From assembly GCA_041665405.1 (NCBI GenBank), contig JBAYIZ010000004.1, forward strand, positions 3,958-67,957: DNA of 64,000 nt. The letters run 5' to 3'. Under the pieces are notes generated by a model, which saw only the letters and a program-made list of their open reading frames with translations, had not been told where the DNA came from and ran no database searches. Made by a program: the position numbers and the translations under genes. The DNA comes from Candidatus Magasanikiibacteriota bacterium (lineage in GTDB: Bacteria; Patescibacteriota; Patescibacteriia; Magasanikbacterales; GWA2-37-8). How positions within the stretch are numbered: position 1 is the first letter of the stretch; each line of letters starts with the position of its first letter. Shown here one piece after another: positions 19,410-60,705 of this stretch.

Positions 19410-19481
19410 GGCCTGTTCGTCTAATGGTTAGGACTTTACCTTCTCAAGGTAGAAATACGGGTTCGATTCCCGTACGGGCTA
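19410..19481 (+). tRNA. tRNA-Glu (anticodon CUC)
   Basis: The cloverleaf was folded by hand. The acceptor stem GGCCTGT/ACGGGCT contains two G-U pairs. The D-arm TTCGTCTAATGGTTAGGAC is tRNA-Glu-like. The anticodon loop is TTCTCAA and the T-loop is TTCGATT. Confidence 0.75.
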
Positions 19482-19483
19482 CA

Positions 19484-19607
19484 AAAGCGGAAGAGTACTT
19501 CCGGTCCAGTCACTCTGGTTCTAACGACATCAGCTTCGGTCTACAAAAGCGGAAGAGTACTTCCGGTCCAGTCACTCTGGTTCTAACGACCTCGGCTTCG
19601 GGCTACA
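19484..19607 (+). repeat. Tandem 62-nt direct repeat (2 copies). Each copy ends with the tRNA-Glu 3' terminus (GGGCTACA / GGTCTACA).
   Basis: Copies at 19484-19545 and 19546-19607 differ at 3 positions. Each unit contains the hairpins CGGAAG-AGTA-CTTCCG and CCAG-TCACT-CTGG. The array abuts the tRNA 3' end. Confidence 0.8.
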
Positions 19608-19679
19608 ACGAACTTTGCTATTAGAACCTCTGGTATATCCAGGGGTTTTTGTATATAATACCCGTTATTAAGATGTTAT

Positions 19680-20144
19680 ATGTATAAAATCGTCGCATAT
19701 GATGACACGATGAAAGATGGTGTTGTCCAATTTCTACTTTCAATATTAGAAGGAGAATTTAATCACACTGGCATTGAACGACCAGACATATATTCTATTT
19801 CAGCCACATATCAAAAAGATGGCGGTAATTTTTGGGTTGCTTTTGATCAAGATAAATTAATAGGAACCGCTGGTCTGATTAATTATGGTTCAAATAATGG
19901 ATATATAAAAAGAATGAGTGTTGATCCTAATTATCGTGGTAAGGGAATCGCTCAGAGCCTGTTAAATGTTTTATTAGATTTTGCCAAAGAATATAGTTAT
20001 AAAAAACTATATTTGGCCACTTCAGAAAATATGATAGCCGCTCAAAAATTTTATGAAAAAGAAGGGTTCAACAGAATACCAAAATTACCAAATGGTTTTC
20101 CTACATCTGGAGCCACAATTTTTTATAAATTGTCGTTAAATTAA
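19680..20144 (+). CDS. GNAT-family N-acetyltransferase
   Basis: 154 aa. It has the acetyl-CoA binding motif RGKGIAQSLL and a GNAT fold pattern. Confidence 0.75.
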   Translation: MYKIVAYDDTMKDGVVQFLLSILEGEFNHTGIERPDIYSISATYQKDGGNFWVAFDQDKLIGTAGLINYGSNNGYIKRMSVDPNYRGKGIAQSLLNVLLDFAKEYSYKKLYLATSENMIAAQKFYEKEGFNRIPKLPNGFPTSGATIFYKLSLN

Positions 20145-20155
20145 GTTTTTTCTGT

Positions 20156-20689
20156 ATGATAAAAACTCTAAGCAAAAAACTAATATATAAAAATCATTGG
20201 ATAACTGTTTGGGAAGATAAAGTAGATTTTGGTAAAAATAATAAAGGCATGTATTCGTATATGGAGCGTAATGATGCTGGCCCGATAATGATTGCCCTTA
20301 CCAAAGATAATAAAGTAGCACTATTAAAAGAATGGAGATATCCGATAAAGAAATACTCGCTAGGTTTTCCAGTTGGCGGTCGGGAAAAAAATGAGAGCTG
20401 GAGTAGTGCTGCTAAGCGTGAGTTGAAAGAAGAAACGGGTATTAGCGCGCGCAAGTGGACAAACCTTGGGAAAATATACATTGATCCTGGAGTGAGTACT
20501 CAATATTCTTATGTTTATCTGGCAGAGGATTTAATTTTTGGCGTTCAGGAGCTTGAACATTCTGAAAATCTTACAGTCAAATTTGTCTCTTTAGTTGAAT
20601 TAGAAAAACTGATTTTAAAAAGTGCAATAAAAAGTAATTGGTTATTAGCAAGCTACGCAAAATTATCTGTTTATTTAAATTCAAGATAG
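20156..20689 (+). CDS. NUDIX hydrolase
   Basis: 177 aa. The Nudix box GGREKNESWSSAAKRELKEETGI (GX5EX7REUXEEXGU) is present. Confidence 0.8.
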   Translation: MIKTLSKKLIYKNHWITVWEDKVDFGKNNKGMYSYMERNDAGPIMIALTKDNKVALLKEWRYPIKKYSLGFPVGGREKNESWSSAAKRELKEETGISARKWTNLGKIYIDPGVSTQYSYVYLAEDLIFGVQELEHSENLTVKFVSLVELEKLILKSAIKSNWLLASYAKLSVYLNSR

Positions 20690-20701
20690 TTTTGATAAAA
20701 A

Positions 20702-20730
20702 AGTTTGCCTACCGTCTCGGTAGGGTCTAC
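20702..20730 (+). repeat. Island repeat copy 1: AGTTTGCCTACCGTCTCGGTAGGGTCTAC with an upstream A-run
   Basis: Exact 29-mer with internal inverted repeat CCTACCG-TCT-CGGTAGG. It starts 12 nt after the NUDIX stop. Confidence 0.9.
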
Positions 20731-20736
20731 ACGCAC

Positions 20737-20766
20737 AATTACGCTAAAAATAGCGTAATTTTTGTT
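20737..20766 (+). terminator. Rho-independent terminator (AATTACGCTA-AAAA-TAGCGTAATT then TTTTGTT)
   Basis: Perfect 10-bp stem followed by a T-run, immediately after repeat copy 1. Confidence 0.7.
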
Positions 20767-20782
20767 ACATTTAATATGATAC

Positions 20783-20811
20783 TTGACATATATATAAAAT
20801 ATAGCTATAAT
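20783..20811 (+). promoter_or_regulatory. Consensus sigma70-type promoter TTGACA-N17-TATAAT upstream of the TA operon
   Basis: TTGACA at 20783-20788 and TATAAT at 20806-20811 with an exact 17-nt spacer. The antitoxin start lies ~34 nt downstream. Confidence 0.6.
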
Positions 20812-20844
20812 ATATACATATTAAATCAGTATAATTTACAGAAT

Positions 20845-21120
20845 ATGACCACCCAAGTAATTTTCAAAATTGATACAAAACTTAAAAATCGGGCGATGGC
20901 CAAGGCACAACACGAAGGTATCGCTTTCTCGTCAATTCTTAAATTTGCCACCAAAGCATTTGTTGATGGTGATTTGAATTTGGGTTTAATTGGAAGTGAA
21001 AAGTTCAACTCAACTGTTGGCAGGGATGTGGCAAATGCACAAAAAGATATTTCAAAAGGAAAAAATCTTTCGCCTAGTTTTTCTTCTGCCAAAGCAGCAA
21101 TTAATTTTCTTAAAAAATAA
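20845..21120 (+). CDS. RelB/DinJ-family antitoxin (type II TA)
   Basis: 91 aa from the internal Met (MTTQVIFKIDTKLKNRAMAKAQHEGIAFSSILKF). It has a DinJ-like N-terminus and immediately precedes a RelE-like ORF. The longer ORF call from 20638 runs over the repeat and terminator and is probably not translated. Confidence 0.6.
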   Translation: MTTQVIFKIDTKLKNRAMAKAQHEGIAFSSILKFATKAFVDGDLNLGLIGSEKFNSTVGRDVANAQKDISKGKNLSPSFSSAKAAINFLKK

Positions 21121-21384
21121 ATGAAACTTATGGAGGTAAGATTTCATAAAAATTTTACGAAAAAATTTAAGAAATTACCAGTTAAAATTCAGGAACAATT
21201 TTATGAACGATTAGAGTTGTTTTTTCAGAATAAGTTTGATATAACACTCAATAATCATTCGGTAGACAAAGTTTTCTCAAATTGTAATAGCATAAATATA
21301 AGTGGGGATTACAGAGCGATTTTTGAAGATCAGGATATTATAACTATATTTATTACAATTGGGACTCATTCGGATTTATATTAA
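21121..21384 (+). CDS. RelE/ParE-superfamily toxin (YafQ/RelE-like, type II TA)
   Basis: 87 aa. It reads KFKKLPVKIQEQFYERLELF ... GDYRAIFE ... ITIFITIGTHSDLY, typical of RelE/YafQ mRNA interferases. Its start overlaps the antitoxin stop. Confidence 0.7.
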   Translation: MKLMEVRFHKNFTKKFKKLPVKIQEQFYERLELFFQNKFDITLNNHSVDKVFSNCNSINISGDYRAIFEDQDIITIFITIGTHSDLY

Positions 21385-21387
21385 AAG

Positions 21388-21418
21388 AAAGTTTGCCTAC
21401 CGTCTCGGTAGGGTCTAT
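21388..21418 (+). repeat. Island repeat copy 2 (AAAGTTTGCCTACCGTCTCGGTAGGGTCTAT)
   Basis: It starts 4 nt after the toxin stop and has one terminal mismatch (C to T). Confidence 0.9.
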
Positions 21419-21437
21419 AAAAAAATTGAAAATTAAA

Positions 21438-21461
21438 ATACCTGAAAACAGGTATTTTTTT
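21438..21461 (+). terminator. Rho-independent terminator (TACCTG-AAAA-CAGGTA plus T7)
   Basis: Hairpin plus T-run 20 nt after repeat copy 2. Confidence 0.7.
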
Positions 21462-21470
21462 ATTTTATAA

Positions 21471-21499
21471 TTGACTGTATAGGGTATGGCTGTTAAAAT
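21471..21499 (+). promoter_or_regulatory. Promoter-like TTGACT-N17-TAAAAT, followed by TATAAT and a GGGAGG SD, feeding the GC-rich cassette
   Basis: The -35 and -10 boxes have 17-nt spacing. The SD GGGAGG at 21521-21526 lies 3 nt before the ATG at 21530. Confidence 0.5.
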
Positions 21500-21529
21500 A
21501 ATCCCGCCCTATAATCTCGGGAGGTCGTC

Positions 21530-22201
21530 ATGTTCAAGCACTTTTGTTTGTGCGTGTGGGCGTTCCAGATTGTCTGGGCGCAAGTCGAAATTTCACATTC
21601 AGACCGTCTGCGTCTGTGGATCAAGAGTCTGGCGCTGTACCTGTCGTTCCTCGCATTCACCGATCGCGAGCGACCGAAGGTTCAACTCAAACGAGCCATG
21701 ATCTCGGCAGTGCTCTCGGCGTTGTATGATTACGACACCGATTGGGTGCGGACGAGTGATCCGGCAAGTTCGATGTTCTACCAACAGGTGGACGTACTGC
21801 TCGCTGATCATCCAGCGCGGGAGGAATCCTCGACAACTGTCAAGAATCTCTTCCAGATGGACTGGGAGGGAAAGTTTTCGGCCGATGGTTTGGAGCGCGG
21901 CGGTGTTGCCCTTCGATCCTATAGGAAAATCATCTAAAGTCGGTGGTTGTCAAAATACACCGAGAAGGAGATTGATCACTTCGGTAGAAAATTGCAGATG
22001 GTGGATGACATGCTCGATCTCGAGAAGGACGCTGCGTCCGGAGATACGAACTGTTTTCACCTACCAGCTGCACAGACCTACCGCACTGAACTGCGGCGTT
22101 TCCTGAGGAGTGAGTTCTTCAGGGAGTTGGAGCAGAACTCCTGGGTCTACAAGTCTGTTCGCATGAGGTGCGAACGCAAACTCCAGAGAGGTGTACTGTG
22201 A
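21530..22201 (+). pseudogene. Isoprenyl-diphosphate-synthase-like (Asp-rich GxxLQMVDDMLDL motif) gene interrupted by an in-frame TAA at 21935-21937
   Basis: ~64% GC. ORFs 21530..21937 and 21947..22201 are in the same frame, separated by a single TAA. The downstream part has a trans-IPPS second-Asp-rich-motif-like GRKLQMVDDMLDLEKD...GDTNCFHLP. The whole is shorter than canonical IPPS, so the enzyme may be degenerate. Confidence 0.35.
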
Positions 22202-22992
22202 TTGCTAAGCTCATCTCGACCAGTCGGCCGATGACGGGCGTCTTCGCGGCGCTCCTTTCTGTCGCTGGATTTCGGTACTTCAACGACGCGCCGTGGATGC
22301 TCGTGTCGGCCACCGCCGTTCTCTTCTTGGGAATCACTTGGCACATCATGTCGTTCAACGATCTGATGGACAGGGTGAACGACCTGCGCAAGAACAAACG
22401 GTTCGCGTACGAAAACGAGTGGGCTCTGCGCCAGTACATCGCGGTGCTGAGTTCGGCCACGCTCACCGTCCTTGGTGCGGTCACTGTGTGGGACATGCGT
22501 GTCGGGTTCTTCTGCGCTTGTGTCTGGGCGCTCGGCGTTCTGTACTCGTTCGTGCCGCACTGGTTCGTCGTCCAGAATTTGATCGTCGCGGTGTGCTCTG
22601 GTTCGCCGGTACTCGTCGGCGTGGTCAACAGTGGGGAAGTGGATTACAGGCCGTTGCTCGTGTTTTGCGCCTTCGTCTTTATCATCTTCATTCGTGAAGT
22701 GTACAAAGACATCGAAGACCAGGACACGGACACCGGATACAAGACCACTCTTCCCATCGTGCTCGGCCACGAAGCGAGTGTGGAGGTGACTACTGGGCTG
22801 ACCTTCGGTTGGGCGGTTTGTCTGTTCCTTTACCCCGACACCTTGTTGGGTGTGATCGGGTTGGGTGGGGGTTCGGCTCTGTTGTCCATTCACCAAGAAC
22901 TCTTGTACGACCACAGGAAGTTCGCCCAAGCAAAAGCGGCTTTGGATTGGGTGATCCGAGCCGTCATCGTCAGCATCCTCATCACCCAATAG
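22198..22992 (+). CDS. UbiA-superfamily aromatic/glyceryl prenyltransferase
   Basis: GC-rich. It has the motifs FNDLMDRVNDL (NDxxDxxxD) and YKDIEDQDTDTGYKTTLP (DxxxD...TLP), with 7-8 predicted TM helices. A candidate GTG start at 22198 overlaps the upstream stop (GTGA). The ORF call gives an upstream alternative start at 22168. Confidence 0.7.
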   Translation: MIAKLISTSRPMTGVFAALLSVAGFRYFNDAPWMLVSATAVLFLGITWHIMSFNDLMDRVNDLRKNKRFAYENEWALRQYIAVLSSATLTVLGAVTVWDMRVGFFCACVWALGVLYSFVPHWFVVQNLIVAVCSGSPVLVGVVNSGEVDYRPLLVFCAFVFIIFIREVYKDIEDQDTDTGYKTTLPIVLGHEASVEVTTGLTFGWAVCLFLYPDTLLGVIGLGGGSALLSIHQELLYDHRKFAQAKAALDWVIRAVIVSILITQ

Positions 22993-23122
22993 GAGTGTTT
23001 TCGTTTCGTCCAACCACCTTGAATGCAGGTGGCATGGACGGAATTAAAAAACCGTTCGTGCTACCTGCTTTGATTCTTTATTTGGAATCAGAGCAAGGAG
23101 ATTTTTCACGAGCGGTTTTTTT

Positions 23123-23155
23123 AAAAAGTTTGCCTACCGTCTCGGTAGGGTCTAC
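23123..23155 (+). repeat. Island repeat copy 3 (AAAAAGTTTGCCTACCGTCTCGGTAGGGTCTAC)
   Basis: Exact core. It is preceded by a long-range inverted repeat AAAAACCGTTCGTG (23046) ... CACGAGCGGTTTTTTT (23107) and followed by a terminator. Confidence 0.9.
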
Positions 23156-23163
23156 TGTAAGGG

Positions 23164-23196
23164 ACTGCATCTTCAAAATGGTGCAGTTTTTGTTTT
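23164..23196 (+). terminator. Rho-independent terminator (ACTGCA ... TGCAGT plus TTTTTGTTTT)
   Basis: Hairpin plus T-run 8 nt after repeat copy 3. Confidence 0.6.
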
Positions 23197-23287
23197 GGTT
23201 AAGAGAAGAAATGGAGTTTGCCATTCGAAATTTTTGCATTAGAAATTGTAATATGATAGTATTATAGATATATAAATAATATCCAAT

Positions 23288-23866
23288 ATGGAAGATTGGC
23301 AAAAGAAATTAGAAGCAATGAGATCTGGTTTGCCAAAACAAACTGATTCTTTTGTAATAAATGATGCTTTAATTGTTCCTGCAGCTAAAAAAGAAATTGT
23401 AAGTGTAAAACCTAGCGATAGAGATAGTGTAGAAGTGGAAAAAGATGATGTCCGTACCAGAACTGATTATGATGAACAGGTTAAAAAGGAAATATTAGAA
23501 AAAGAATCATATGATAATGACCCTGATTTTTTAGAAGTAGTTATAATTTTAGGATTGAAAAAAGGCCAGAATAGATATTTTAGAATTCGAGATATTTTTT
23601 ATCATGCAACAAGAACGGATGTCGATTATGAAGTTAATAGATATCTTACATTTACTAATGAAAAGGTACTTTCAATTAAAAAAAAATTAAGAGTACAAGG
23701 ATACAAATCGGCTGCCTACAGATTTTGGTTGTCCGCACAGCCAGAAGGTATGCGATACGGAAAACAAGTAAAAGAAGAACGTTTGAGTCAGGCCGAATAT
23801 TATGCTAAACAAGCGAGAACTACTTTGCAAGAAATTATAGATGGTCACGAGCAGCGTCTTAAGTAA
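23288..23866 (+). CDS. Hypothetical protein (AT-rich cassette, charged/K-E rich)
   Basis: 192 aa. No recognisable motif. Its own promoter-like TTGCAT-N17-TAGTAT lies upstream at ~23234. Confidence 0.4.
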   Translation: MEDWQKKLEAMRSGLPKQTDSFVINDALIVPAAKKEIVSVKPSDRDSVEVEKDDVRTRTDYDEQVKKEILEKESYDNDPDFLEVVIILGLKKGQNRYFRIRDIFYHATRTDVDYEVNRYLTFTNEKVLSIKKKLRVQGYKSAAYRFWLSAQPEGMRYGKQVKEERLSQAEYYAKQARTTLQEIIDGHEQRLK

Positions 23867-23889
23867 TGATTTTTTGGGTTTAGATCAAT

Positions 23890-23918
23890 AGTTTGCCTAC
23901 TGTCTCGGTAGGGTCTAC
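23890..23918 (+). repeat. Island repeat copy 4 (AGTTTGCCTACTGTCTCGGTAGGGTCTAC)
   Basis: It starts 24 nt after the stop and has one stem mismatch (C to T, giving a G-U wobble if transcribed). Confidence 0.85.
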
Positions 23919-23975
23919 ACTGCTGTACACAGGTTCTGGGTGACCGAGAGGACTCAAATCTGTACAGAAAATAAA

Positions 23976-23999
23976 ATACCAATAAAATGGTATTTTTTC
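23976..23999 (+). terminator. Rho-independent terminator (ATACCA-ATAAAA-TGGTAT plus T6)
   Basis: Hairpin plus T-run. It is preceded by a second long hairpin (CTGTACA ... TGTACAG, 23924-23968). Confidence 0.65.
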
Positions 24000-24129
24000 T
24001 TATTTAATAAAATTATACATTTTTCACATCAGAGTATTGAATTTTTCTTAAGTACATGTTAGTTTTATCTTATTCGGTTTCTGCTGTCATGCGGCAGTAG
24101 GAGAAGACAACTCCCACAGGAGGTTCAAC

Positions 24130-25362
24130 GTGAACCGTCATCCGGTGCTGGATCTGTTTCTCAAGTATGCGGCCATCGACACCAAGTCCGGGGTGAATGA
24201 GGAGAATCACCCCAGCTCGGTCGGCCAGACGACCTTGATCGCGATGATCAAGCAGGACCTGCTCGCCAGCGGCGCTACGGAAGGCCAGTTCTTGCACTTC
24301 AAGGACGGCTCGATGTTGGTGCGCTTCGAGGGCACCGTGAACGGCAAGGCGATCTGCTATGCCGCTCACGTGGACACCAGTCCGGAAGCCGCCGGAGGTG
24401 CGACGTGCATCATCCACGAGTACGACGGTGGTGACATCGTCCTGCCCGAGGGGGATGTCGTCATCTCGGAGAAGGATCTCGCCGACAAGAAGGGCACGAT
24501 CGTGACCGCGAACGGACTGACCACGCTCGGTGCCGACGACAAAGCTGGTGTGGCCATCCTCTGCCAGATCGGATCCGACCTGGCCAACGGGACCATCGCC
24601 CACCATCCTCCCGTCGACCTGTACTTCTGCGTGGACGAGGAGATCGGACAGCTCGAGATTGGCGTCGTGCCGTCTGAGATCGTCGGTTCGTGGAGCGCTT
24701 TCATCACGCTCGACGGCGGCAATCCGCAGATGGTCGACACCAGCTGCTTCAACGGCTGGGAGACGATCGTCGAGTTCTTCGGCCAGAGCGCTCATCCTGG
24801 TGCTGACGGCGAGAACCTCAAGCCGGCCCACTACGCGATGGCGCGGCTCATCACCGAGCTGCAGGATACTTGGGTCGTCGATGCTCCCTGGATTTCCCGG
24901 GGCGATGCACCGTTCATCTACGTGTCCAGGGTGGGGGAAATGACCCCCGTTCATGCGCAAGCCGAGGTCATGCCGCGATCCTTCAATGCCGAGGACCTTC
25001 CCAAGTTCCACGAGCTGATTGTCGAGATCACCGAGAACATCGTCGCGTCGTACGGCGTCCGCTGTCAGATCAGTGGTCGTGGGTTGCTGTACGTCAACAC
25101 GGCCACGGCCATCAAGCAGCACCCTGAAGTCCTCGATCCCATCATGCACGCGATCCACGAGATCCTGCATACGACGGGCGAGAACGCCGTCCGCGGCGGC
25201 ACCGATGGTGCCATGGCGAACATGAAGTACCCCGGCCTGCCCTCTCCGAACCTCGGCGTCGGCATGTACAAGTTCCACGGCGTCCGCGAGTTCCTCGTCG
25301 TGAAGGAGATGCTCGCGATGTACGAGGTCATGAAGCTCCTCGTGCCAGCCTATGCCGACTAG
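24130..25362 (+). CDS. pepT: Peptidase T (tripeptide aminopeptidase, M20B family)
   Basis: 410 aa, ~66% GC with GC3 above 80%. Motifs HVDT, GADDKAG, DEEIGQ, GQSAHPG and FHGVRE are present. The SD AGGAGG lies 7 nt before a GTG start. The antisense ORF 24070..25278 is a GC-rich shadow. Confidence 0.8.
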   Translation: MNRHPVLDLFLKYAAIDTKSGVNEENHPSSVGQTTLIAMIKQDLLASGATEGQFLHFKDGSMLVRFEGTVNGKAICYAAHVDTSPEAAGGATCIIHEYDGGDIVLPEGDVVISEKDLADKKGTIVTANGLTTLGADDKAGVAILCQIGSDLANGTIAHHPPVDLYFCVDEEIGQLEIGVVPSEIVGSWSAFITLDGGNPQMVDTSCFNGWETIVEFFGQSAHPGADGENLKPAHYAMARLITELQDTWVVDAPWISRGDAPFIYVSRVGEMTPVHAQAEVMPRSFNAEDLPKFHELIVEITENIVASYGVRCQISGRGLLYVNTATAIKQHPEVLDPIMHAIHEILHTTGENAVRGGTDGAMANMKYPGLPSPNLGVGMYKFHGVREFLVVKEMLAMYEVMKLLVPAYAD

Positions 25363-25492
25363 TTCGTCCCGCCACAGTTCGTTTCCGCTCGCATCCCGCC
25401 AAATTGACTGGGTGCGACCACAAGTCCATCCAGTCCCCTTAATTGATAGTTTAATTCTGTCATTTAAGGGGAATGGATTTGTAAAATAATAA

Positions 25493-25530
25493 AACCACTT
25501 ATAGTAATATGAGTGGTTTTTTGTTGTTTT
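25493..25530 (+). terminator. Rho-independent terminator after pepT (ACCACTTA ... TGAGTGGT plus TTTTTTGTTGTTTT)
   Basis: Hairpin plus T-run. This cassette junction lacks the conserved 29-nt repeat. Confidence 0.6.
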
Positions 25531-25644
25531 AACTTTTAATAATAATTGACAAAAATAGTCTATAGTTGTAGTTTTAACCTAGGTTTCTTGTGTCGCAGGG
25601 TGGTCCTGCGCGAACCAGATCAAGCGCCTCAAGGAAGGTGTCCG

Positions 25645-27093
25645 ATGTTGTTGTCCCCGGTGAAGACCTACTTCCAAGACTTCGGCCAGCTGTTCAAGCT
25701 GCCGAGGGAGTTCTGGGCCATCCAGGCCTTGAACTTCGTGTATTGCGCGTTCTACTTCACGTTCGTGACGATCAGCGCGCTGCACCTGAGCCAGGATGTC
25801 GGCTTCAGCGATGAAGGTGCCGGCCTGCTCTTCGGCGTGTTCATGTTCGGCACGGCGATCATCCAGATCCTGATGGGTCCTGTCGTGGACCGTCTCGGTT
25901 TTCGGAAGACGCCGCTCGTGGCCGCCATGATCATCACCGTCGGCATGCTCGGCATCGGCTTCACGCCGCTCGTGTTCGGCGCCAACAACCTCGCTCGTGC
26001 TCTGATGGTGCTCTTCTACCTCGTGGCTATGGTCGGGAACGGTCTCATGTCCCCGGTTGTCACGGCAGGAGTGAAGAGATTCTCCAATTCCGAGACGCGC
26101 GGCGCGGGCTTCAACATGTGGTACCTGACTATGAATGTCGGAGCTATGCTGACCTTCGTCATCGACTTCATGCGTCGGCCGCTTGAGGACAAGGCCACCG
26201 CCGAACAACTCGCTGCCTTTCGTGATGGTGGGGGCAACTCCAACATCGTGTGGTACCTCGTCGGCCTGCTCGTCGTCTGCTGGCTGGTCGTGTACCTCTT
26301 CCTCAAGAAGGAGGCGCAGTTCGCCGAGTTCAACACGGCCGTGTCGCAGTCGAAGGTCGTCGCGACCAAGACCAAGCAACCGCCTTTCGGCGAGATGATC
26401 AAGGAGATCTGGGCGGACAAGGCGTTTCGCAAGGTCCTCGCCCTCCTGTTCTTCACCATCCCGGCTCACATTCCCTTCGTCGCGATCTTCGTGATCTATC
26501 CCAAGTACTACACGCGGGTGATCGCGCCGGACGTGAACCTGGGGATGTTGCAGTCGCTCAACCCGGTCATCATCGTCGTCGGCCTGCTCATGTTCGCGCC
26601 GTTGCTCAAGCGCTTCAGCGTGTACTGGGTTCTGACCGTCGGCATGTTCATCGGCGGAGCTTCCTGCCTGGTCCTCGCGATCCCTCCGCTGTGGCTCGGC
26701 AAGCTCTTCGGCATCAGCGCCATCGGTGATGTCTACCTCGCGATGGTGGGCGTGCAGATCGTGATCTTCTCGATGGGCGAATTCGTCTGGAGCCCTCAGC
26801 TCCAGGCCTACGTCGGCGCCATCGCTCCCGAAGGCAAGGAAGGCACCTACATGGGCGTGACGAGGTACCCCTACACCCTCGCCAAGTTGTTGGGCGGAGC
26901 CATCGGCGGCCTCCTCCTGGCGCACTACTGCCCTGAGGGAATCAAGCCGTTGCTCGAAGCTGGCAAGGTCGGGTACACCGACGGCCCCGAGTTCATGAAC
27001 CTGATCCTCGCCCTGTTCGCGCTCTCGAGCCCGATGTTCCTGATCCTGCTCCGGAAGAAGTACTACGTCGACACGCGCGCCGAGGCGAGCTGA
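25645..27093 (+). CDS. MFS-family transporter (12 TM helices)
   Basis: ~66% GC. The SD AAGGAAGG lies 6 nt before the ATG at 25645. There are two 6-helix halves with Gly-rich TM segments, and TTGACA at 25546 lies upstream. The ORF call's 25546 start includes the promoter. The antisense ORF 25579..27234 is a shadow. Confidence 0.7.
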   Translation: MLLSPVKTYFQDFGQLFKLPREFWAIQALNFVYCAFYFTFVTISALHLSQDVGFSDEGAGLLFGVFMFGTAIIQILMGPVVDRLGFRKTPLVAAMIITVGMLGIGFTPLVFGANNLARALMVLFYLVAMVGNGLMSPVVTAGVKRFSNSETRGAGFNMWYLTMNVGAMLTFVIDFMRRPLEDKATAEQLAAFRDGGGNSNIVWYLVGLLVVCWLVVYLFLKKEAQFAEFNTAVSQSKVVATKTKQPPFGEMIKEIWADKAFRKVLALLFFTIPAHIPFVAIFVIYPKYYTRVIAPDVNLGMLQSLNPVIIVVGLLMFAPLLKRFSVYWVLTVGMFIGGASCLVLAIPPLWLGKLFGISAIGDVYLAMVGVQIVIFSMGEFVWSPQLQAYVGAIAPEGKEGTYMGVTRYPYTLAKLLGGAIGGLLLAHYCPEGIKPLLEAGKVGYTDGPEFMNLILALFALSSPMFLILLRKKYYVDTRAEAS

Positions 27094-27290
27094 CGAATAC
27101 GACTTCACCACACCCCATCTTCCGAAATACGGTGGGGAAGAGCGACGCTGACTGTCGCTCCGTCCGAAAGGATGTTCATCTTGGCCACCCGGCCAGGTGA
27201 GGAGGATTTGGTCAGAACATTCGACCACCCGCACTCACTTAAATTCAGAATTCATTTCTGGCTTTAAGCGACGGGTGGTTTTTGTTTATG

Positions 27291-27322
27291 AAAAGTTTGC
27301 CTACCGTCTCGGTAGGGTCTAC
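27291..27322 (+). repeat. Island repeat copy 5 (AAAAGTTTGCCTACCGTCTCGGTAGGGTCTAC)
   Basis: Exact core. It is preceded by a terminator-like CCACCCG ... CGGGTGG plus TTTTTGTTT (27222-27288) and followed by a second terminator. Confidence 0.9.
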
Positions 27323-27333
27323 TAGTTTAAAAA

Positions 27334-27360
27334 TTCGCTTATCGAAGCGGATTTTTTGTT
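27334..27360 (+). terminator. Rho-independent terminator (TTCGCTT-ATCG-AAGCGG plus ATTTTTTGTT)
   Basis: Hairpin plus T-run 10 nt after repeat copy 5. Confidence 0.6.
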
Positions 27361-27367
27361 ATCTATC

Positions 27368-27396
27368 TTGACAATACTACTAAATTATGTTATTTT
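27368..27396 (+). promoter_or_regulatory. Promoter-like TTGACA-N17-TATTTT with an AGGAGG SD at 27414
   Basis: Spacing is 17 nt. The SD lies 7 nt before the ATG at 27427. Confidence 0.45.
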
Positions 27397-27426
27397 AATC
27401 AGTCCGAATTTTTCAGGAGGTTCAGA

Positions 27427-27708
27427 ATGCCCAAGCATCGCGCTGGTGGCAAGTACTCAGGTTCGCACACGACCATCATCGATGCCGCCGAGGTGGTCGC
27501 AGACACTGCGGCAAAATTGAAGGAGGTGAGCAAGATTATCCTTGGGATGATAAAGGTTGCGCCTTCAAAACAGGCGCGCCTCAAGATCACGGTCGTTCCG
27601 GCCGGGTTGGAGGTGGTGGTTTACGGCAGAATCTCTCTGCAGACCATCTTCGTCTACACCAAGGACACGAAGAACGTTCAGAGCGCTATCGAGCGAGCTT
27701 TCCGCTGA
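27427..27708 (+). CDS. Small hypothetical protein (93 aa, ~58% GC)
   Basis: A good SD is present. No recognisable motif. The 3' UTR is GC-rich and has two terminator-like hairpins before repeat copy 6. Confidence 0.4.
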   Translation: MPKHRAGGKYSGSHTTIIDAAEVVADTAAKLKEVSKIILGMIKVAPSKQARLKITVVPAGLEVVVYGRISLQTIFVYTKDTKNVQSAIERAFR

Positions 27709-27858
27709 AGGCAAACTCGTGCGCAAGCAACTGACGCTACACCGCGAAGCGTCTGGCAGTGTTGCAACTCGGAATCGCGGTACTGTCAAAAGCAGCTTTG
27801 TTAAAGGCTGTTTTTGTTTTTAAATACATTCGAACTATTTTCGAATTTTTTAATTTAA

Positions 27859-27891
27859 TAAAAAGTTTGCCTACCGTCTCGGTAGGGTCTA
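27859..27891 (+). repeat. Island repeat copy 6 (AAAAAGTTTGCCTACCGTCTCGGTAGGGTCTAC)
   Basis: Exact core. It is preceded by the terminator ATTCGAA-CTATT-TTCGAAT plus T6 (27827-27852) and followed by another. Confidence 0.9.
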
Positions 27892-27902
27892 CTAATCAAA
27901 AA

Positions 27903-27930
27903 ACCAGATCTAAAATTGTCTGGTTTTTTT
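27903..27930 (+). terminator. Rho-independent terminator (ACCAGA-TCTAAAATTG-TCTGGT plus T7)
   Basis: Hairpin plus T-run 11 nt after repeat copy 6. Confidence 0.65.
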
Positions 27931-27984
27931 GTATAAAAATAAAAATGTGCTAAAATATACAGTATTATAAATTTAATATAATTT

Positions 27985-28209
27985 ATGCAACTACCAAATA
28001 ATTTAACCGAAAATACTCAAATCGCGATTTTCAAAGGAAAAGAAATTAGGAAAACTATTTATCAGGGGGAATGGTGGTTTGTTATAGTTGATGTGATAGA
28101 GGCACTTACTGATTCGGTAAATCCAAAACAGTATTTGAAGAATATGCTTAATAGAGATACTGAACTTACCAAAGGGTGGGTTCAAATTGAACGCCCCCTT
28201 GGAAATTAA
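27985..28209 (+). CDS. Short protein (74 aa) with a DinD/Bro-N-like N-terminal motif
   Basis: IAIFKGKEIRKTIYQGEWWFVIVDVIEALTDS is paralogous to the ORF at 63346..63564 and to the N-terminus of the DinD-like gene at 39831. I recognise the motif as DinD/Bro-N-like (antirepressor-type). Bro-N proper is recalled from memory only. Confidence 0.5.
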   Translation: MQLPNNLTENTQIAIFKGKEIRKTIYQGEWWFVIVDVIEALTDSVNPKQYLKNMLNRDTELTKGWVQIERPLGN

Positions 28210-28477
28210 CAGAACTGAAAATTCAAAAGGTGTAGCAAAATTAAAAAGTGATGCCAAAGCCGGTGGTGATATCGCTGGCGGAGCAAGGAAGAAATTGGAA
28301 AAACGCCTTGGCCGATCGATTGTGACAAAGAGGAATTTTATTAAATGAAATGGCCTACAAATTTAATTTGACAAACAAAAAATAGAATGTTAAGCTAAAT
28401 ACATATGATTAAATTGTTCACCAACAATAATTGCAATAATAATTCCCTTTGCGGGTGAGTTTTGTTTTTTATAAGAT

Positions 28478-28507
28478 AAAACTTCCCGCGATTGGGAAGT
28501 TTTTTTA
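28478..28507 (+). terminator. Rho-independent terminator (AACTTCCC-GCGATT-GGGAAGTT plus T7) just upstream of tRNA-Asn
   Basis: Perfect 8-bp stem plus T-run. Confidence 0.6.
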
Positions 28508-28508
28508 T

Positions 28509-28580
28509 TCCTGGGTAGTTGAGTGGTACAACGCCACGCTGTTAACGTGGATATCCTTGGTTCGAATCCAAGCCCAGGAG
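28509..28580 (+). tRNA. tRNA-Asn (anticodon GUU)
   Basis: Hand fold: acceptor TCCTGGG/CCCAGGA, U8, D-stem GTTG/CAAC with a GG loop, anticodon stem CCACG/CGTGG with loop CTGTTAA, and T-arm CTTGG-TTCGAAT-CCAAG. Confidence 0.8.
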
Positions 28581-28695
28581 CGAACAAAGTGAGCGAAAGA
28601 CAGTAGCACACTCGCGTGCGCTACGTTTGGATGAGAAGTTTATGCCCCGAGGGGTAAATCCAAGCCCAGGAGCGAACAAAGTGAGCGAAAGACAG
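28566..28695 (+). repeat. 38-nt direct repeat (ATCCAAGCCCAGGAGCGAACAAAGTGAGCGAAAGACAG) at 28566-28603 and 28658-28695. The first copy includes the last 15 nt of tRNA-Asn.
   Basis: Two identical copies 92 bp apart. This is the att-site-like duplication pattern of tRNA 3' ends. Confidence 0.8.
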
Positions 28696-28707
28696 GAGCG
28701 CACATAA

Positions 28708-29673
28708 TTATTTAATCCCGCAATGTTGTTTTAGTTGCAAAATATCTTCTGGTAATAATTTTTCATTAATACCATTATTCAAATAATACATCATCGCTTT
28801 GGTGCTAGACACATGCTCCAAACCCAGAGCATGGCCGAGTTCGTGTGCCAACACTCGCACCAGTTTGTTGTTGTCATCAAATTGATAAATGTTGATTTCT
28901 TGACCAGCCGCCGAGCTTTTGTATGAACCTTCTTCAAATTCTTCGCCTCGACTAGATCCAATAGTGTTGTAGTGGTCTACTGATAAATTGAGAGTTTGGG
29001 CTAAATTATTGAGTGTATTTGCGAGTGCGTTTATCTCGTCTATTTTGTTGTTGAAAATATTTTGTTGAGTTTCAAAATTGGCTAGTAGTTGGTTAAGTGC
29101 GATCTCTTTAGAGTGAATGCTCTCAATTTCTGCGGGTGAAGCACCACCTTTGCGGTTTAAATTTTTTATTTCCGCATTGTAAATAGTGATGCGACGATCC
29201 AGTTCGGCACCTAGTTTATCTAAATTTGTTTTGTCTGTTTGATATGATTTTTGTAGAGATGCGAATTGGGTTTTTAATTTGTCATAAGTGGCCTGATCAT
29301 TTTTTACCACGATACCCAGTTGTTTTAATTTCAAAGTAGTATCTTGACGATAATCATAAATTAAATTTATTTTCAAAGTACCATTGGGCGCGTATTCAAA
29401 AAGATTCAGACCACTTGGTTTTTCCCAAATTTGTTCAGCTGATGTGATTGCCGTTAATAAATTTTTTTGGCTAATGCCGAAATGTTGGTCAACCTCACCA
29501 AGTTGATAGGTGATTGGCTCTTGGCAGGGGAGAAAGCGTTGGTAAAAATGATTTTTAAGGTTTGGTAAATCATCACGAAAAAAATAGGCCAAACCGCCAA
29601 GCATAGATATAATAATTAACCAGTTTATGATTTGGTAAAAATTTTTATTCATATTATTTATATTATACCACAA
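28708..29673 (-). CDS. Membrane-anchored zinc metalloprotease (metzincin/matrixin-like HExxHxxGxxH)
   Basis: 321 aa. It has an N-terminal TM helix, a coiled-coil-like middle, and a C-terminal HELGHALGLEHV zinc-binding motif. Confidence 0.6.
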   Translation of the reverse strand: MWYNINNMNKNFYQIINWLIIISMLGGLAYFFRDDLPNLKNHFYQRFLPCQEPITYQLGEVDQHFGISQKNLLTAITSAEQIWEKPSGLNLFEYAPNGTLKINLIYDYRQDTTLKLKQLGIVVKNDQATYDKLKTQFASLQKSYQTDKTNLDKLGAELDRRITIYNAEIKNLNRKGGASPAEIESIHSKEIALNQLLANFETQQNIFNNKIDEINALANTLNNLAQTLNLSVDHYNTIGSSRGEEFEEGSYKSSAAGQEINIYQFDDNNKLVRVLAHELGHALGLEHVSSTKAMMYYLNNGINEKLLPEDILQLKQHCGIK

Positions 29674-29804
29674 ATTGGCAATTGGTTGGTTATATAGAGG
29701 TATGGGTATGGAGTTTTGAGTTTGCTATTGACTGATTTTTTGATAGGGTATACACTTAAATCATTAAACAAGTATTTAATTAATTAACTATTTAACATAA
29801 CTAT

Positions 29805-30155
29805 ATGTTAAGCAAACAAGAGCTTCAAAAAAACCGGGAAATACTCAGTGAAGCGGACAAAAGTATGGCCGCGACATTCAAAGTGCTTAGCGATGTGAAT
29901 CGCTATCGGATTTTTCGTATTCTTGTAGAACAGCCAAAGCTCACAGTGAGCGCCATTGCCTTGATTTTAGACATTTCTTTACCACTAGCATCGCAACATC
30001 TCAAAATTTTGGTGCAGGCCAATCTACTCAAAAAAGTGCGTGAAGGTAAAAAAGTTTTTCCAAAAATTAAACAGACCAATCCGTTCGTCCCGGCTATCCT
30101 TAAAACCATTAAACATGCTTATAAATTACGAAATAAAATAAACACAGAAATATAA
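29805..30155 (+). CDS. ArsR/SmtB-family HTH transcriptional regulator
   Basis: 116 aa. It reads FKVLSDVNRYRIFRIL...LTVSAIALILDISLPLASQHLKILVQANLL, a winged-helix ArsR pattern. A palindrome TTAACATA-ACTA-TATGTTAA overlaps its start codon. Confidence 0.7.
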   Translation: MLSKQELQKNREILSEADKSMAATFKVLSDVNRYRIFRILVEQPKLTVSAIALILDISLPLASQHLKILVQANLLKKVREGKKVFPKIKQTNPFVPAILKTIKHAYKLRNKINTEI

Positions 30156-39830: not shown

Positions 39831-40679
39831 ATGGAAAAAAATATAATAACTCATTTACATAAAACTTTTGAAGATTGTGTTCACATAGAAGATGATATTG
39901 AATTTTGGTTAGCAAGGGAATTACAGGTTTTGCTTGGGTATGAGAGGTGGGAGAATTTTGAAAATGCCATAAAAAGGGCAAAAATTGCTTGTACAAATGC
40001 TAAAAATGATGTTTTGGACCATTTTCGTGGCGTCACGAAAATGGTTGATGTTGGTTCTAGAACGACTCGTGAGATAGAGGATATAAAACTCACCCGTTAC
40101 GCGTGCTATCTTATCGCTCAAAATGGCGACCCACGCAAGGATGAAATCGCTTTTGCTATGACATATTTCGCGGTTCAGACCCGTAAACAAGAAATTATAG
40201 AACAGCGATTGGCTCAGTGGGATCGTTTACATGCGCGAGAAAAACTTTCCATATCCGAAAAAGGGCTTTCAGGTATATTATTTGAGCGAGGTGTTGATAA
40301 TGTAGGTTTTGCACGAATTCGCAGTAAGGGCGACGCGGCGTTATTTGGCGGGTATACCACAAGCGAAATGAAAAATAAATTAAGAGTTCCAGTTAGCCGT
40401 CCACTTGCGGATTTTTTGCCAAGTGTAACTATAAAAGCTAAAGATTTGGCGACTGAAATAACCAGCCATAATGTTAAAAAAGATCAATCGCTTAATGGCG
40501 AGCCGATAATCACCGACGAACATATAAAAAATAATCAAAATATGCGTGATATGTTGGTCAAGAGTGGTATCTATCCGGAGTCATTGCCACCGGAGGAAGA
40601 TGTTAAAAAAATGGAACGAAAAATCAAATCCGCGGATAAAAAATTGGTAAAAAATGTTAAGAAGTTAATAAGGGAATAA
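39831..40679 (+). CDS. DinD-like protein (DNA-damage-inducible protein D family)
   Basis: 282 aa. The N-terminal ~110 aa (FEDCVHIEDDIEFWLARELQVLLGYERWENFENAIKRAKIACTNAKNDVLDHFRGVTKMVDVGSRTTREIEDIKLTRYACYLIAQNG) closely follows E. coli DinD as I recall it. Confidence 0.6.
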   Translation: MEKNIITHLHKTFEDCVHIEDDIEFWLARELQVLLGYERWENFENAIKRAKIACTNAKNDVLDHFRGVTKMVDVGSRTTREIEDIKLTRYACYLIAQNGDPRKDEIAFAMTYFAVQTRKQEIIEQRLAQWDRLHAREKLSISEKGLSGILFERGVDNVGFARIRSKGDAALFGGYTTSEMKNKLRVPVSRPLADFLPSVTIKAKDLATEITSHNVKKDQSLNGEPIITDEHIKNNQNMRDMLVKSGIYPESLPPEEDVKKMERKIKSADKKLVKNVKKLIRE

Positions 40680-59694: not shown

Positions 59695-60489
59695 ATGATT
59701 CCTTATTTTCAGGCCAACGCCATAGCATTCGGTCCACTCACTATCCAGGTGTGGGGGTTGTTTGTGTCACTGGGAATTTTATCTGGTTTGATTTTGGCTT
59801 ATAAACTTTCGCGCAAATATTTTTTGGCGGAGCAGGTTGTTTTGGATTTGGGAGTGTGGAGCATTGTGGGCGGTTTGATTATGGCTAGAATATTTCATGT
59901 CGTATTCTATGCACCAGAATATTATTTATTGCACCCGTCTGAGATAATTTATTTTTGGCAAGGTGGAGCATCTTCGCTAGGTGGGTTTGTGGGAGCGGCT
60001 TTTGCAATTTATATTTTTGCAAAATATAAAAAGTTTACACTAAAAGAACTATGGCCTTATTTTGATGTTATGTCTTTGAGTTTGTGGTTGGGGTGGGCGA
60101 TTGGGAGGATTGGTTGTTTTATTATTCATGATCATCCGGGGATGTTATCCAATTCTTTTTTGGCTGTAAATTTTCCCAGTGGTGCGCGTTTTGATTTGGG
60201 TTTGTTTGATTCATTATTAGGTTGGTTTATTTTTATTGTGTTTGCGCTATTGTTTAAAAAATTAGTAAAAGCGCGTTGGGGATTAGTGGTTCAATTGTCT
60301 TTTATGGTTTACGCTTTTGTGCGTTTTTGGTTGGATTTTTTGCGTGCTACGGATGTGACACAAGCGGATGTGAGATATCTGATGTTGACCCCAGCTCAAT
60401 GGGGAATGCTGGCGATATTTATCGGATTGACTTTTTGGTTGGTTTTTGATAGTATTCAACGACGAAAAAATCTCGGAGAGGTCGCATAG
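59695..60489 (+). CDS. lgt: Prolipoprotein diacylglyceryl transferase
   Basis: Polytopic. The Lgt signature GRIGCFIIHDHPG (GRxGNFxNxE-like) is present. The start is more likely the ATG at 59695 than 59668. Confidence 0.75.
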   Translation: MIPYFQANAIAFGPLTIQVWGLFVSLGILSGLILAYKLSRKYFLAEQVVLDLGVWSIVGGLIMARIFHVVFYAPEYYLLHPSEIIYFWQGGASSLGGFVGAAFAIYIFAKYKKFTLKELWPYFDVMSLSLWLGWAIGRIGCFIIHDHPGMLSNSFLAVNFPSGARFDLGLFDSLLGWFIFIVFALLFKKLVKARWGLVVQLSFMVYAFVRFWLDFLRATDVTQADVRYLMLTPAQWGMLAIFIGLTFWLVFDSIQRRKNLGEVA

Positions 60490-60559: not shown

Positions 60560-60596
60560 CTGGGTCACGCTTATATGAGCGACTTGCTCATATTCC

Positions 60597-60629: not shown

Positions 60630-60705
60630 ATTGACAAATATATTTATTTATCATAGGCTTTCAACAATGAGACTTCGCGGATCTTCCGCAAGGAAGGAGG
60701 CACTC

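Follow-up and report, generated by a model that had tools for sequence, protein, structure and literature searches.

A stretch of 64,000 nucleotides (nt) from a Candidatus Magasanikiibacteriota bacterium (contig JBAYIZ010000004.1, positions 3,958 to 67,957 of the forward strand), called the window below, carries a row of small gene cassettes directly behind a tRNA-Glu(CUC) gene. We analysed this array, the short repeats that punctuate it and the equivalent loci of related genomes. The results point to the end of the tRNA gene as a probable target of large serine recombinases (LSRs), and to the repeats as probable remains of their attachment sites.

The array behind tRNA-Glu

The gene for tRNA-Glu(CUC) occupies positions 19410-19481/2 of the plus strand and was called by both ARAGORN and Rfam (anticodon CTC); tRNAs were the sole matches in the Rfam scan of the window. 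It runs into a tandem repeat with a period of 62 nt (2.2 copies, 19475-19608, 94% matches, score 247 in Tandem Repeats Finder), the register of which begins in the last 8 nt of the tRNA gene. Unit 1 (plus strand, 19483-19544) ends in CGGTCTAC, and unit 2 (plus strand, 19545-19606), 95% identical to it, ends in CGGGCTAC, with a terminator further on at about 19630-19655. A preliminary description of this DNA had already listed two tandem 62-nt units here, which Tandem Repeats Finder bears out, but it took them for duplications of the 3' end of the tRNA. This part does not hold, since the tRNA end and the units have only about 8-9 nt in common (CGG[GT]CTACA); the other 53 nt or so of each unit are not tRNA sequence and resemble the attP arms of an integrative element.

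Further downstream, a 29-nt element, AGTTTGCCTACCGTCTCGGTAGGGTCTAC, is found in six copies, all on the plus strand, with ends at 20730, 21418, 23155, 23918, 27322 and 27892. The copies have at most one mismatch each, and 100 shuffles of the window gave no match. It contains a 7-bp stem with a 3-nt loop, and its reverse strand reads as GTAG, AC and the hairpin. All six copies lie in one orientation within a single variable segment of 7 kb, and there are none elsewhere in the 64 kb. Every copy comes after the stop codon of a gene or gene pair and is followed by a terminator-like hairpin and a sigma-70-like promoter. A CRISPR array, which has repeats of 23-50 nt and spacers of similar short length, was rejected as an explanation: instead of short, even spacers, the intervals here hold genes with promoters, and the start-to-start spacing ranges from 570 to 3404 nt.

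About seven small cassettes of 0.6-3.4 kb are stacked after tRNA-Glu in this way, all on the plus strand; six end in a 29-nt arm, and the last segment has none. Their cargo was identified by a Pfam scan of the window genes, and promoter-like and terminator-like sites are present in each. Cassette 1 (19607-20730) holds genes for a GNAT acetyltransferase (19680-20144) and a Nudix hydrolase (20156-20689) ahead of its arm (20702-20730). Cassette 2 (20731-21418) starts with a terminator and a consensus promoter and encodes an antitoxin (20845-21120) and a ParE/YafQ-like toxin (21121-21384); its arm (21390-21418) ends in TCTAT. Two short open reading frames (ORFs) without Pfam match precede the gene of a UbiA-family prenyltransferase (22168-22992) and the arm (23127-23155) in cassette 3 (21419-23155), which has a G+C content of about 55%. 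The cargo of cassette 4 (23156-23918) is a protein of unknown function of 192 amino acids (aa; 23288-23866), and a C-to-T change in its arm (23890-23918) gives a G-T pair in the stem. Cassette 5 (23919-27322, about 62% G+C) encodes an M20/peptidase-T-like protein (24130-25362) and an MFS transporter (25546-27093) before the arm at 27294-27322. Cassette 6 (27323-27892), also GC-rich, has a gene for a DUF2103-like protein of 93 aa (27427-27708) and an arm at 27864-27892. The last segment (27893-28508) carries a BRO-N-like gene of 74 aa (27985-28209) and no 29-nt arm at its end.

The two short GC-rich ORFs before the UbiA gene (21530-22201, 135 and 84 aa, no Pfam match) may be one frameshifted gene; the second contains the motif DDMLDLEKD, which recalls polyprenyl synthases. 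Gene calls for this contig in ENA (L001, L003 and L005) place ORFs of 402 aa and 551 aa on the wrong (minus) strand of the M20 and MFS genes, at 24070-25278 and 25579-27234, and a 288-aa ORF opposite UbiA. This kind of artefact is typical where an insert of high G+C content sits in a low-GC genome; at NCBI, the M20 gene is annotated on the correct strand. A chimeric assembly was rejected, because the final k-mer of 141 is to be set against a repeat of 29 nt, pieces of an independent Logan assembly match (with breaks at the repeats), and the metagenome-assembled genome at NCBI has the same M20 gene.

Three of the cassettes have 55-63% G+C, against a window average of 38.6%. For the M20 cassette, a recent GC-rich donor outside the candidate phyla radiation (CPR) was rejected: identity to the peptidase T of non-CPR bacteria reaches only about 31-33%. 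Proteins of other Magasanikbacteria come nearest to the M20 peptidase (62% G+C), with 61-67% identity, and are themselves encoded in GC-rich islands there (62% G+C in the gene vs 49% overall in L103, 59% vs 43% in L104). To judge by these sequences, GC-rich cassettes appear to circulate within Magasanikbacteria. In L104 the M20 cassette lies away from tRNA-Glu, beside core aminoacyl-tRNA synthetase genes, and is flanked by a direct repeat of about 85 nt (700-990 and 2220-2400; ACCCCAGCGTAACAGAGGAACGCTGGACAGACATTCAGTAACTCATGCCGCAGTGC…TTTTTTT, a hairpin plus terminator), which may be a further cassette-boundary element.

The locus in related genomes

To find the same locus elsewhere, the 265-aa protein encoded two genes upstream of tRNA-Glu was aligned against GTDB genomes. 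This gave 80 orthologous loci, 11 of which have tRNA-Glu(CTC) after the operon of ATP-grasp, 265-aa protein and methyltransferase genes; further loci came from Joint Genome Institute (JGI) metagenomes, via the tRNA sequence, and from look-ups of homologues. The operon upstream of the array is conserved and is present also in genomes that lack arrays. Downstream of the tRNA the picture changes abruptly: in eight relatives with an identical tRNA, the sequences diverge exactly past …GGGCTAC. An ArsR gene and an ice-binding-like gene, which belong to the right flank in the window, follow tRNA-Glu within about 400 nt in L015, with no cassettes in between, so that L015 is effectively an empty site. 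The distance from the tRNA to ArsR is about 3 kb in L011, the ArsR of which is 90% identical to that of the window, compared with 10.3 kb in the window itself. The locus is a site-specific integration hot spot: depending on the relative, the site is empty, holds other cargo or holds the same toxin-antitoxin cassette as the window. An integration hot spot with accreted cassettes is also what the preliminary description had proposed for this interval, with the suggestion to look for an empty site in related genomes; L015 provides one.

The exact point of joining can be read from cassettes that occur in more than one context (a slash marks the junction here and below). The toxin-antitoxin cassette starts with /TAAACGG…. 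In L011 the DNA joined to this start is the tRNA end GGGCTAC/, and in L014 it is the end of a methyltransferase cassette, …AAAGTCTAC/ (…CAGTCACCGTCAAAGTCTAC/). The first 55 nt or so of cassette 5 (/ACTGCTGTACACAGGTTCTGGGTGACCGAGAGG), which on the minus strand read FCTDLSPLGHPEPVYSS/V, are homologous to the DNA right after tRNA-Glu in L094 (tRNA/GCTGCTGTACATAGGTTCTGGGTGACCGAGAGG). Because the partners joined to the same start have only CTAC in common, the joining must be regarded as site-specific, and these two comparisons place the junction at CTAC/. The central dinucleotide of the exchange would be TA, AC or CA, a choice that the sequence alone leaves among the three. Two further observations concern the surroundings of these junctions. 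ARAGORN reports a tRNA-like gene on the minus strand (tRNA-Cys, anticodon ACA) just upstream of tRNA-Glu in L087 (11498-11575), and the DNA ahead of the toxin-antitoxin promoter repeatedly contains inverted sequences resembling a T-arm (GGGAATCGAACCC), in L014, L090 and L094.

The right border of the variable segment lies further out than the preliminary description had it. There, the array was thought to be bracketed by tRNA-Glu and tRNA-Asn. The tRNA-Asn(GUU) gene (28509-28580/1, plus strand, ARAGORN and Rfam, anticodon GTT) is itself part of the variable segment and is missing from the orthologous loci, as is the DNA that follows, a gene for a matrixin-like metalloprotease with its upstream region (28708-29725, gene 28708-29604, minus strand); no relative has a protease here. 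Conserved flank begins only at about 29726, upstream of ArsR (29805-30155), and positions 5043-5450 of L011 match 29726-30142 of the window. The repetition of the 3' end of tRNA-Asn plus downstream sequence at a distance of 92 bp, also part of that description, was found again and extends to 47 nt at 96% identity (28565-28611 and 28657-28703, plus strand, period 92 nt, 1.5 copies). Each copy consists of the last 16 nt of the tRNA and 31 nt of downstream sequence, and the two enclose only 45 nt (28612-28656) and no island.

None of the 11 orthologous loci with tRNA-Glu called by ARAGORN has the 62-nt units, nor have the other tRNA-Glu loci (L087, L090-L095). The units are therefore not a conserved non-coding RNA, the case that was named in the preliminary description as one that would speak against attachment-site scars; its reading of the repeats as scars of recombination is supported. 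This bears on the idea that all these repeats are functional RNA or DNA elements, such as stabilisers of 3'-untranslated regions, bidirectional terminators or elements like repetitive extragenic palindromes (REPs), which spread together with genes, and that the 62-nt and 92-nt tandems arose by replication slippage without any recombinase. The minus strand of the 29-nt element, which reads VDPTETVGKLF followed by the 7-bp hairpin and a T-run, indeed scores as an intrinsic terminator (CAAACTTTTT after the stem), the copies always stand between a stop codon and a plus-strand terminator, and head-to-tail duplications are the expected products of slippage. We nevertheless consider this explanation quite improbable. 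It does not account for six copies in one 7-kb variable segment and one orientation with none elsewhere in the window, for 62-nt units that relatives lack at their tRNA-Glu, or for homologous cassette starts that follow, with the joint at an identical nucleotide, either the tRNA end or the end of another cassette, these ends having only CTAC in common. A role in termination is moreover compatible with the action of LSRs and does not replace it.

Recombinases and attachment arms

LSR genes are found at tRNA-Glu in relatives. A full-length LSR with the catalytic motif YYRVSTxEQ and a zinc ribbon lies on the minus strand right after tRNA-Glu in L091 and L092. Its reading frame crosses the junction and stops in the antisense strand of the tRNA (…QQKRGFASANPPV/VARTGIEPVFLP or …ANPPV/VARTGIEPVFLP, with the stop codon directly behind). 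In IMG/VR this stretch is a 7.1-kb provirus, which also has a P-loop protein and a possible replication protein; the former reads as a putative Zot-like protein. With such putative Zot-like and replication proteins, the provirus would fit the inoviruses of CPR bacteria reported by Roux et al. (PMC6813254). The contig of P0005 has an LSR (P0128) with the same tRNA-antisense ending, the stop codon of which is 88 nt past the flanking methyltransferase gene. A hidden Markov model (HMM) of LSR C-termini detected remnants of 33-39 codons right after tRNA-Glu in L014 (E = 3e-14), L008 (2e-9) and L095 (8e-8), the body of the recombinase being deleted. For these three loci, the HMM match led us to reject the notion that the sequence conserved past the tRNA in relatives (…GTTTAATCATAGAGAAAATATTGGGTTCGATTA) is native flank; in L087 and L090 the match is not significant. 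The window itself, searched with tblastn of 120 LSRs and with the C-terminus HMM, matched only in the tRNA-antisense stretch, where the minus strand reads …SAF/VARTGIEPVFLP across the junction of tRNA-Glu and unit 1. The recombinase implicated by the relatives is a large serine recombinase and probably not a classical tyrosine integrase; the preliminary description had spoken of the classic footprint of an integrase.

The LSR family comprises 279 homologues at E <= 1e-20, all with the domains Resolvase, Recombinase and Zn_ribbon_recom. At least 83 of the 120 homologues listed among these have the ending …V-x-x-x-G[IFV]EP…, which corresponds to a tRNA T-loop and acceptor read in antisense (e.g. 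…V/ARTGIEPVFLP and stop), and many others on that list have variants of this ending such as RIEL or GLEP. A few LSRs have native tails instead: P0140 (…SSIV/DYCIENLHPLVLDIKKW…), P0204 (…SSYV/NYCLTNWNSLIDEIRRW…) and P0196 (…SPKV/PLREKISKRFNEIIGEIKRW…). Both forms occur side by side in L098, where two LSRs lie in series at a tRNA-Arg gene; the one on the tRNA side ends in tRNA antisense and the outer one in a native tail. In this arrangement the arm of the newer element supplies the native tail of the outer LSR, and the case demonstrates that tandem insertion takes place. A diversity-generating retroelement (bAvd and reverse transcriptase) was seen beside the tandem elements of L098 (6111-8026); two Fib_succ_major/N_methyl genes at its side may be its targets. 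Another observation concerns the C-terminal LSR motif (K/R)(E/D)(L/F)AxA(N/K)S… (P0121-P0240; L092, reoriented, 85-130). The palindromic stretch that encodes it forms, when read from the other strand, the intrinsic terminator of the tRNA gene, so that one DNA segment appears to serve as LSR coding sequence and as tRNA terminator.

The clearest connection between array repeats and recombinases comes from a more distant species, L021. Its tRNA-Glu ends in GGTGGTAC and is followed by an LSR-less array with eight copies of another repeat, ending in …AGTGTAC/; the end of the repeat thus co-varies with the end of the tRNA. The cassettes that the copies separate code for a methyltransferase, a protein with a PEP-utiliser domain, a Nudix hydrolase, a Fic protein and products of unknown function. 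Read from the minus strand, seven of the copies encode VHYCIENLHPL[VIL]xxIxxW, which is the tail of the full-length LSR P0140, and the DNA of the P0140 gene (L100) matches the L021 repeat over its first 33 nt or so. In the frame of the tail the copies have 60 synonymous codon differences, against 10 and 19 in the other two frames. Since seven copies encode the native C-terminal tail of a full-length LSR, the part beyond the crossover, the L021 repeats are attP left arms.

This result has to be held against the more conventional reading of such a locus, in which the repeats are duplicated tRNA 3' ends, the attL/attR cores left by a phage-type tyrosine integrase acting in trans. The 3' ends of tRNA genes are the usual targets of these enzymes, the 16-nt duplication at tRNA-Asn looks like a classical att core, and tandem accretion at tRNA genes with scattered partial tRNAs is documented for tycheposons, most of which use tyrosine recombinases. 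On the other hand, no tyrosine integrase was present among the Pfam matches of the scanned window genes, in the annotations of the examined contig stretches or at the examined related tRNA-Glu loci. The recombinase actually located at tRNA-Glu in relatives is an LSR, and the array repeats of L021 are LSR coding sequence. Moreover, the tRNA-Glu end and the repeats have only 8-9 nt in common, and not 15 nt or more flanking an island. We rate this explanation as rather unlikely.

Arrays are found in several Magasanikbacteria species, each with a lineage-specific arm. Cassettes of L008, L010, L011, L014, L087, L090 and L094 end in a second kind of arm (…GTTCCAAYAGTCA…AGTGGTCTAC/), which we call type B. 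The array of L008 combines an arm of type B with a variant form of the 29-nt element (AGTTTATCTATCGTCTCGGTATGGTCTAC/). The arms are also interchangeable on the same cargo: at the end of the toxin-antitoxin cassette stands the 29-nt arm in the window, a truncated form of it (AAAAGTTTG…) in L011 and an arm of type B in L094. Type-B arms read VD[HF]xxD[YC]WNx[LF]xxEIKxW and resemble the native tails of P0204 and P0140. That they are clearly protein-coding by their codon-like variation is a claim we dropped, as the frame-control test did not support it; the link rests on the similarity to the two tails.

Taking the last 25 nt or so of tRNA-Glu (…GGTTCGATTCCCGTACGGGCTAC/) as an attB-type left half-site, with the junction after C74, seems the most probable interpretation. 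The 3' half of each 62-nt unit (GGTTCTAACGAC…CGGTCTAC/) looks like an attP-type left arm and the whole unit like a cargo-less mini-element made of a right and a left arm; unit 1, for instance, reads as a gene-less combination of a right-arm-like part (AAAAGCGG…) and the attP-type left arm GGTTCTAACGACATCAGCTTCGGTCTAC/. The end GGTCTAC/ is common to this 3' half and the 29-nt element. A likeness of this kind had been set aside in the preliminary description as weak and perhaps coincidental; it is instead the key feature, as it marks the junction in every array. In serine integrase sites, the motif for the zinc-ribbon domain lies nearer to the crossover in attB, by 5 bp, than it does in attP (Rutherford et al., PMC3783163). 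Here, the first base of GTTC is at -22 in the tRNA arm, compared with -27 in three type-B arms and both 62-nt units, GGTTC starts at -28 from the junction in unit 1 versus -23 in tRNA-Glu, and GGGGT in L021 starts at -25 in the tRNA versus -30 in the repeat. This offset of 5 bp matches the rule for attP and attB half-sites. The 29-nt element, with an A-run followed by GTTT at -28, fits the spacing only approximately.

For the 29-nt element, membership in the same LSR system is argued by analogy, from the same tRNA, the same junction, the co-occurrence with type-B arms and the interchangeability on the same cargo; on these grounds we infer that it is an attP arm as well. A terminator on its minus strand is what would be expected where the transcript of an unintegrated LSR gene ends. 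Among the sequences on the right side of the junctions, two minus-strand readings (…YSSAF/V and …EPVYSS/V) faintly recall LSR ends. At tRNA-Asn, the minus strand of the repeat (…SLTLFA/PGLGFEP) is loosely like LSR ends, and the LSR C-terminus HMM had no significant match there; the repeat is possibly a separate mini-element scar of the same kind as at tRNA-Glu, an assignment that is unproven. Scans of IMG/VR with the 62-nt unit, the tRNA-Asn repeat and the type-B arm returned no matches.

The form of the array recalls integrons, and an integron proper was rejected, as there is no IntI and there are no attC cores. In a looser version, the 29-nt hairpin would act as a folded single-stranded site comparable to attC; a dedicated recombinase would recognise it and insert cassettes with their own promoters at the tRNA-Glu end, the equivalent of attI, and LSR prophages would simply share the hot spot. 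Unidirectional cassettes of 1-3 genes with a near-identical hairpin element at the end, integron-typical cargo (toxin-antitoxin, GNAT and Nudix, and Fic in L021) and a stem variant that keeps its pairing as G-T would suit this proposal, as would the GC-rich cassettes circulating in Magasanikbacteria, one of which, in L104, is flanked by a different hairpin-plus-terminator repeat off the tRNA-Glu locus. Sites of the attC type, however, measure about 57-141 nt and have R''-L''…L'-R' cores (RYYYAAC…GTTRRRY), and integron cassettes are mostly promoterless. The 29 nt found here are far below such lengths and lack R''/R' core sites (RYYYAAC/GTTRRRY), and each cassette has promoter-like sites. No IntI-like gene was found, and no attI or Pc is adjacent, the upstream genes being the conserved operon. 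The L008 variant breaks a stem pair, type-B arms have no hairpin in equivalent positions, and the L021 repeats are demonstrably LSR tails. The proposal is unlikely on this evidence. A single-strand mechanism of the REP/RAYT or IS200/IS605 type, suggested by GTAG plus hairpin, was dropped in view of the LSRs at the junction and the hairpin-less type-B arms; the dispersal in both orientations of a REP/RAYT family is also not seen, the copies being confined to one 7-kb segment and one orientation in this contig, the only one examined in this respect.

Some other features of the window may be added. A paralogue of the BRO-N-like last gene of the array (27985-28209; …FKGKxxRKTxxxxEWWFxxVDV…) lies near the right window end (63346-63564), and a larger BRO/DinD-like gene at 39831-40679. 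At 60475-61200, a terminator and a promoter-like TTGACA come after tRNA-Ser(GGA), then an ORF of 55% G+C (60631-61041) in DNA of about 36% G+C, and then a long terminator hairpin. A further foreign cassette may lie here, directly behind a tRNA gene; no 29-nt arm was seen. A tandem repeat of 267 nt (35863-36802, 3.5 copies, 73% identity) lies inside the gene of an 827-aa secreted protein (34563-37046).

Stacking at the tRNA end and comparison with known systems

We propose that tRNA-Glu is a hot spot of a Patescibacteria LSR family, that the 29-nt elements and the 62-nt units are arms derived from attP, and that the cassettes are recombinase-less remnants or satellites; we assign this a probability of roughly 0.6. 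The 3' end of tRNA-Glu(CUC) would serve as the chromosomal attB-type half-site, with the junction CTAC/ after C74. The LSR gene would lie at one end of the element and read outward, with attP contained in its final codons. As long as the element is free or in tandem, the ORF would run over the junction into a tail encoded by the left arm of attP (the P arm). After integration the ORF would end in tRNA antisense (…V/ARTGIEPVFLP and stop), and the P arm would stay at the far end of the insert. Newer insertions on the tRNA side would push older ones outward and so build up a stack, each unit of which would begin with a remnant of a right arm, which serves as a terminator, and continue with a promoter, the cargo and a P arm that ends in CTAC/. 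The six 29-nt elements would be such P arms, and their hairpin and T-run the terminator of the former LSR transcript. The 62-nt units would be cargo-less mini-elements of P' and P, so that tRNA and units together may represent attL, an attP-like site and attR. The seven cassettes would have lost their own LSR or never had one, and further movement would need an LSR in trans. For the window itself, we infer the insertion order and the mobilisation in trans, like the place of the 29-nt element in the system, from these comparisons.

Several results weigh against this proposal. No LSR gene or significant remnant was found in the window or in the examined parts of the 75-kb contig, and no LSR with the tail VDPTETVGKLF was found. 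Neither GTDB genomes nor JGI metagenomes contained an exact match to the 29-nt element, and IMG/VR had none even to a looser pattern; the element seems confined to this lineage or to collections beyond those scanned. The sequences to the right of the six junctions have no recognisable common right arm. The near-identity of the six copies, as opposed to the diverged copies of L021, could be explained by duplication or gene conversion and not by six insertions. For type-B arms the codon-signature test was not significant (56 synonymous differences in the tested frame, while the two others have 55 and 31), and the tRNA-Asn repeat has no independent support as an LSR scar. Finally, well-studied serine integrases do not recombine attP with attL (PMC3783163), so that stacking needs a relaxed site choice or another step.

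A more far-reaching version would see in these arrays the counterpart of the integron in CPR bacteria, based on serine recombinases: non-autonomous cassettes, each with an attP arm of about 29 nt and its own promoter and terminator, would be mobilised in trans by LSRs and stacked at tRNA 3' ends. The LSRs may come from resident or infecting elements. The exchange of LSR tails, native versus tRNA-antisense, could in this version be a built-in switch of directionality or site choice that permits stacking of the attP x attL type, which canonical serine integrases forbid. We regard this as a tentative idea, possible but doubtful at present. If it is true, minimal genomes would possess a means of capturing genes, GC-rich ones of foreign composition included.

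Islands that grow from a tRNA gene are well known, and the bare finding of one is ordinary. Out of the ordinary are the hundreds of Patescibacteria LSRs with ORFs that extend across their own attachment site and end in a tRNA gene of the opposite strand; since the ORF crosses this site into the tRNA, integration rewrites the C-terminus of the enzyme. The same applies to the regular, integron-like arrays of tiny self-contained cassettes without recombinase genes, and to cargo of 55-63% G+C in a genome of 38.6% G+C with very limited metabolism. In the literature outside subscription journals, we found no description of tRNA-targeting LSRs with such an overlap of ORF and attachment site, or of LSR-less cassette stacks, in CPR bacteria. 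If our proposal is correct, it explains how CPR genomes acquire accessory genes, and it adds to the serine integrases found in nature some that target tRNA genes and may be relaxed in directionality, a point of relevance to genome engineering. For annotation, it means that many 'C-terminal' residues of LSRs, and short repeats near tRNA genes, are attachment-site artefacts of the integrated state.

Among the closest known systems are the phage-type large serine integrases (Listeria A118/LI, phiC31, Bxb1 and SprA of SPbeta). They resemble the present system in the protein with Resolvase, Recombinase and zinc-ribbon domains found at the junction in relatives, in the short left arms of about 25-30 bp, in the 5-bp offset of the motif between the arms of element and host, and in the lack of long direct repeats. 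They differ in that the target here is the 3' end of a tRNA gene, to our knowledge an unusual one for serine integrases, and in that attP lies in the last codons of the integrase, so that integration would swap the 10-25 C-terminal residues for about 12 residues encoded by tRNA antisense. Here, too, multiple insertions stack and most units lack an integrase, whereas the canonical enzymes do not target attL.

Tycheposons of Prochlorococcus use tyrosine recombinases in 910 of 937 cases, and their att copies are partial tRNAs (bioRxiv 10.1101/2020.12.28.424599). With them the array has in common repeated integration at one tRNA that pushes older elements outward, scattered remnants and att copies, adaptive or defensive cargo and streamlined hosts; unlike theirs, the scars here are coding tails of LSRs with about 8 nt in common with the tRNA, and the units are integron-sized with their own promoter and terminator. 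The staphylococcal cassette chromosome (SCC, SCCmec) also comes close: CcrAB serine recombinases insert it at the 3' end of rlmH, and there are tandem composites with short repeats and recombinase-less pseudo-SCC elements that can be moved in trans. Large serine recombinases, the 3' end of a conserved gene and tandem composites are thus found in both. Recombinase family, target gene and phylum are others, SCC units are tens of kb long, and we know of no overlap of ORF and attachment site for Ccr.

With integrons the arrays have in common unidirectional cassettes of 1-3 genes, an end repeat containing a hairpin, similar cargo and genes of foreign base composition. They are unlike integrons in having no tyrosine recombinase IntI and no attC cores, in a repeat of 29 nt, in promoters and terminators of their own, and in a tRNA gene as anchor in place of attI. 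A last parallel is offered by the SSV1-type integrases of archaeal fuselloviruses. These are tyrosine recombinases with attP inside int, so that integration into a tRNA gene splits the whole gene. As in the LSRs described here, the attachment site lies within the recombinase ORF and integration at a tRNA alters the recombinase gene; unlike in SSV1, it is a bacterial serine recombinase that is affected, and only its C-terminal tail would be exchanged.

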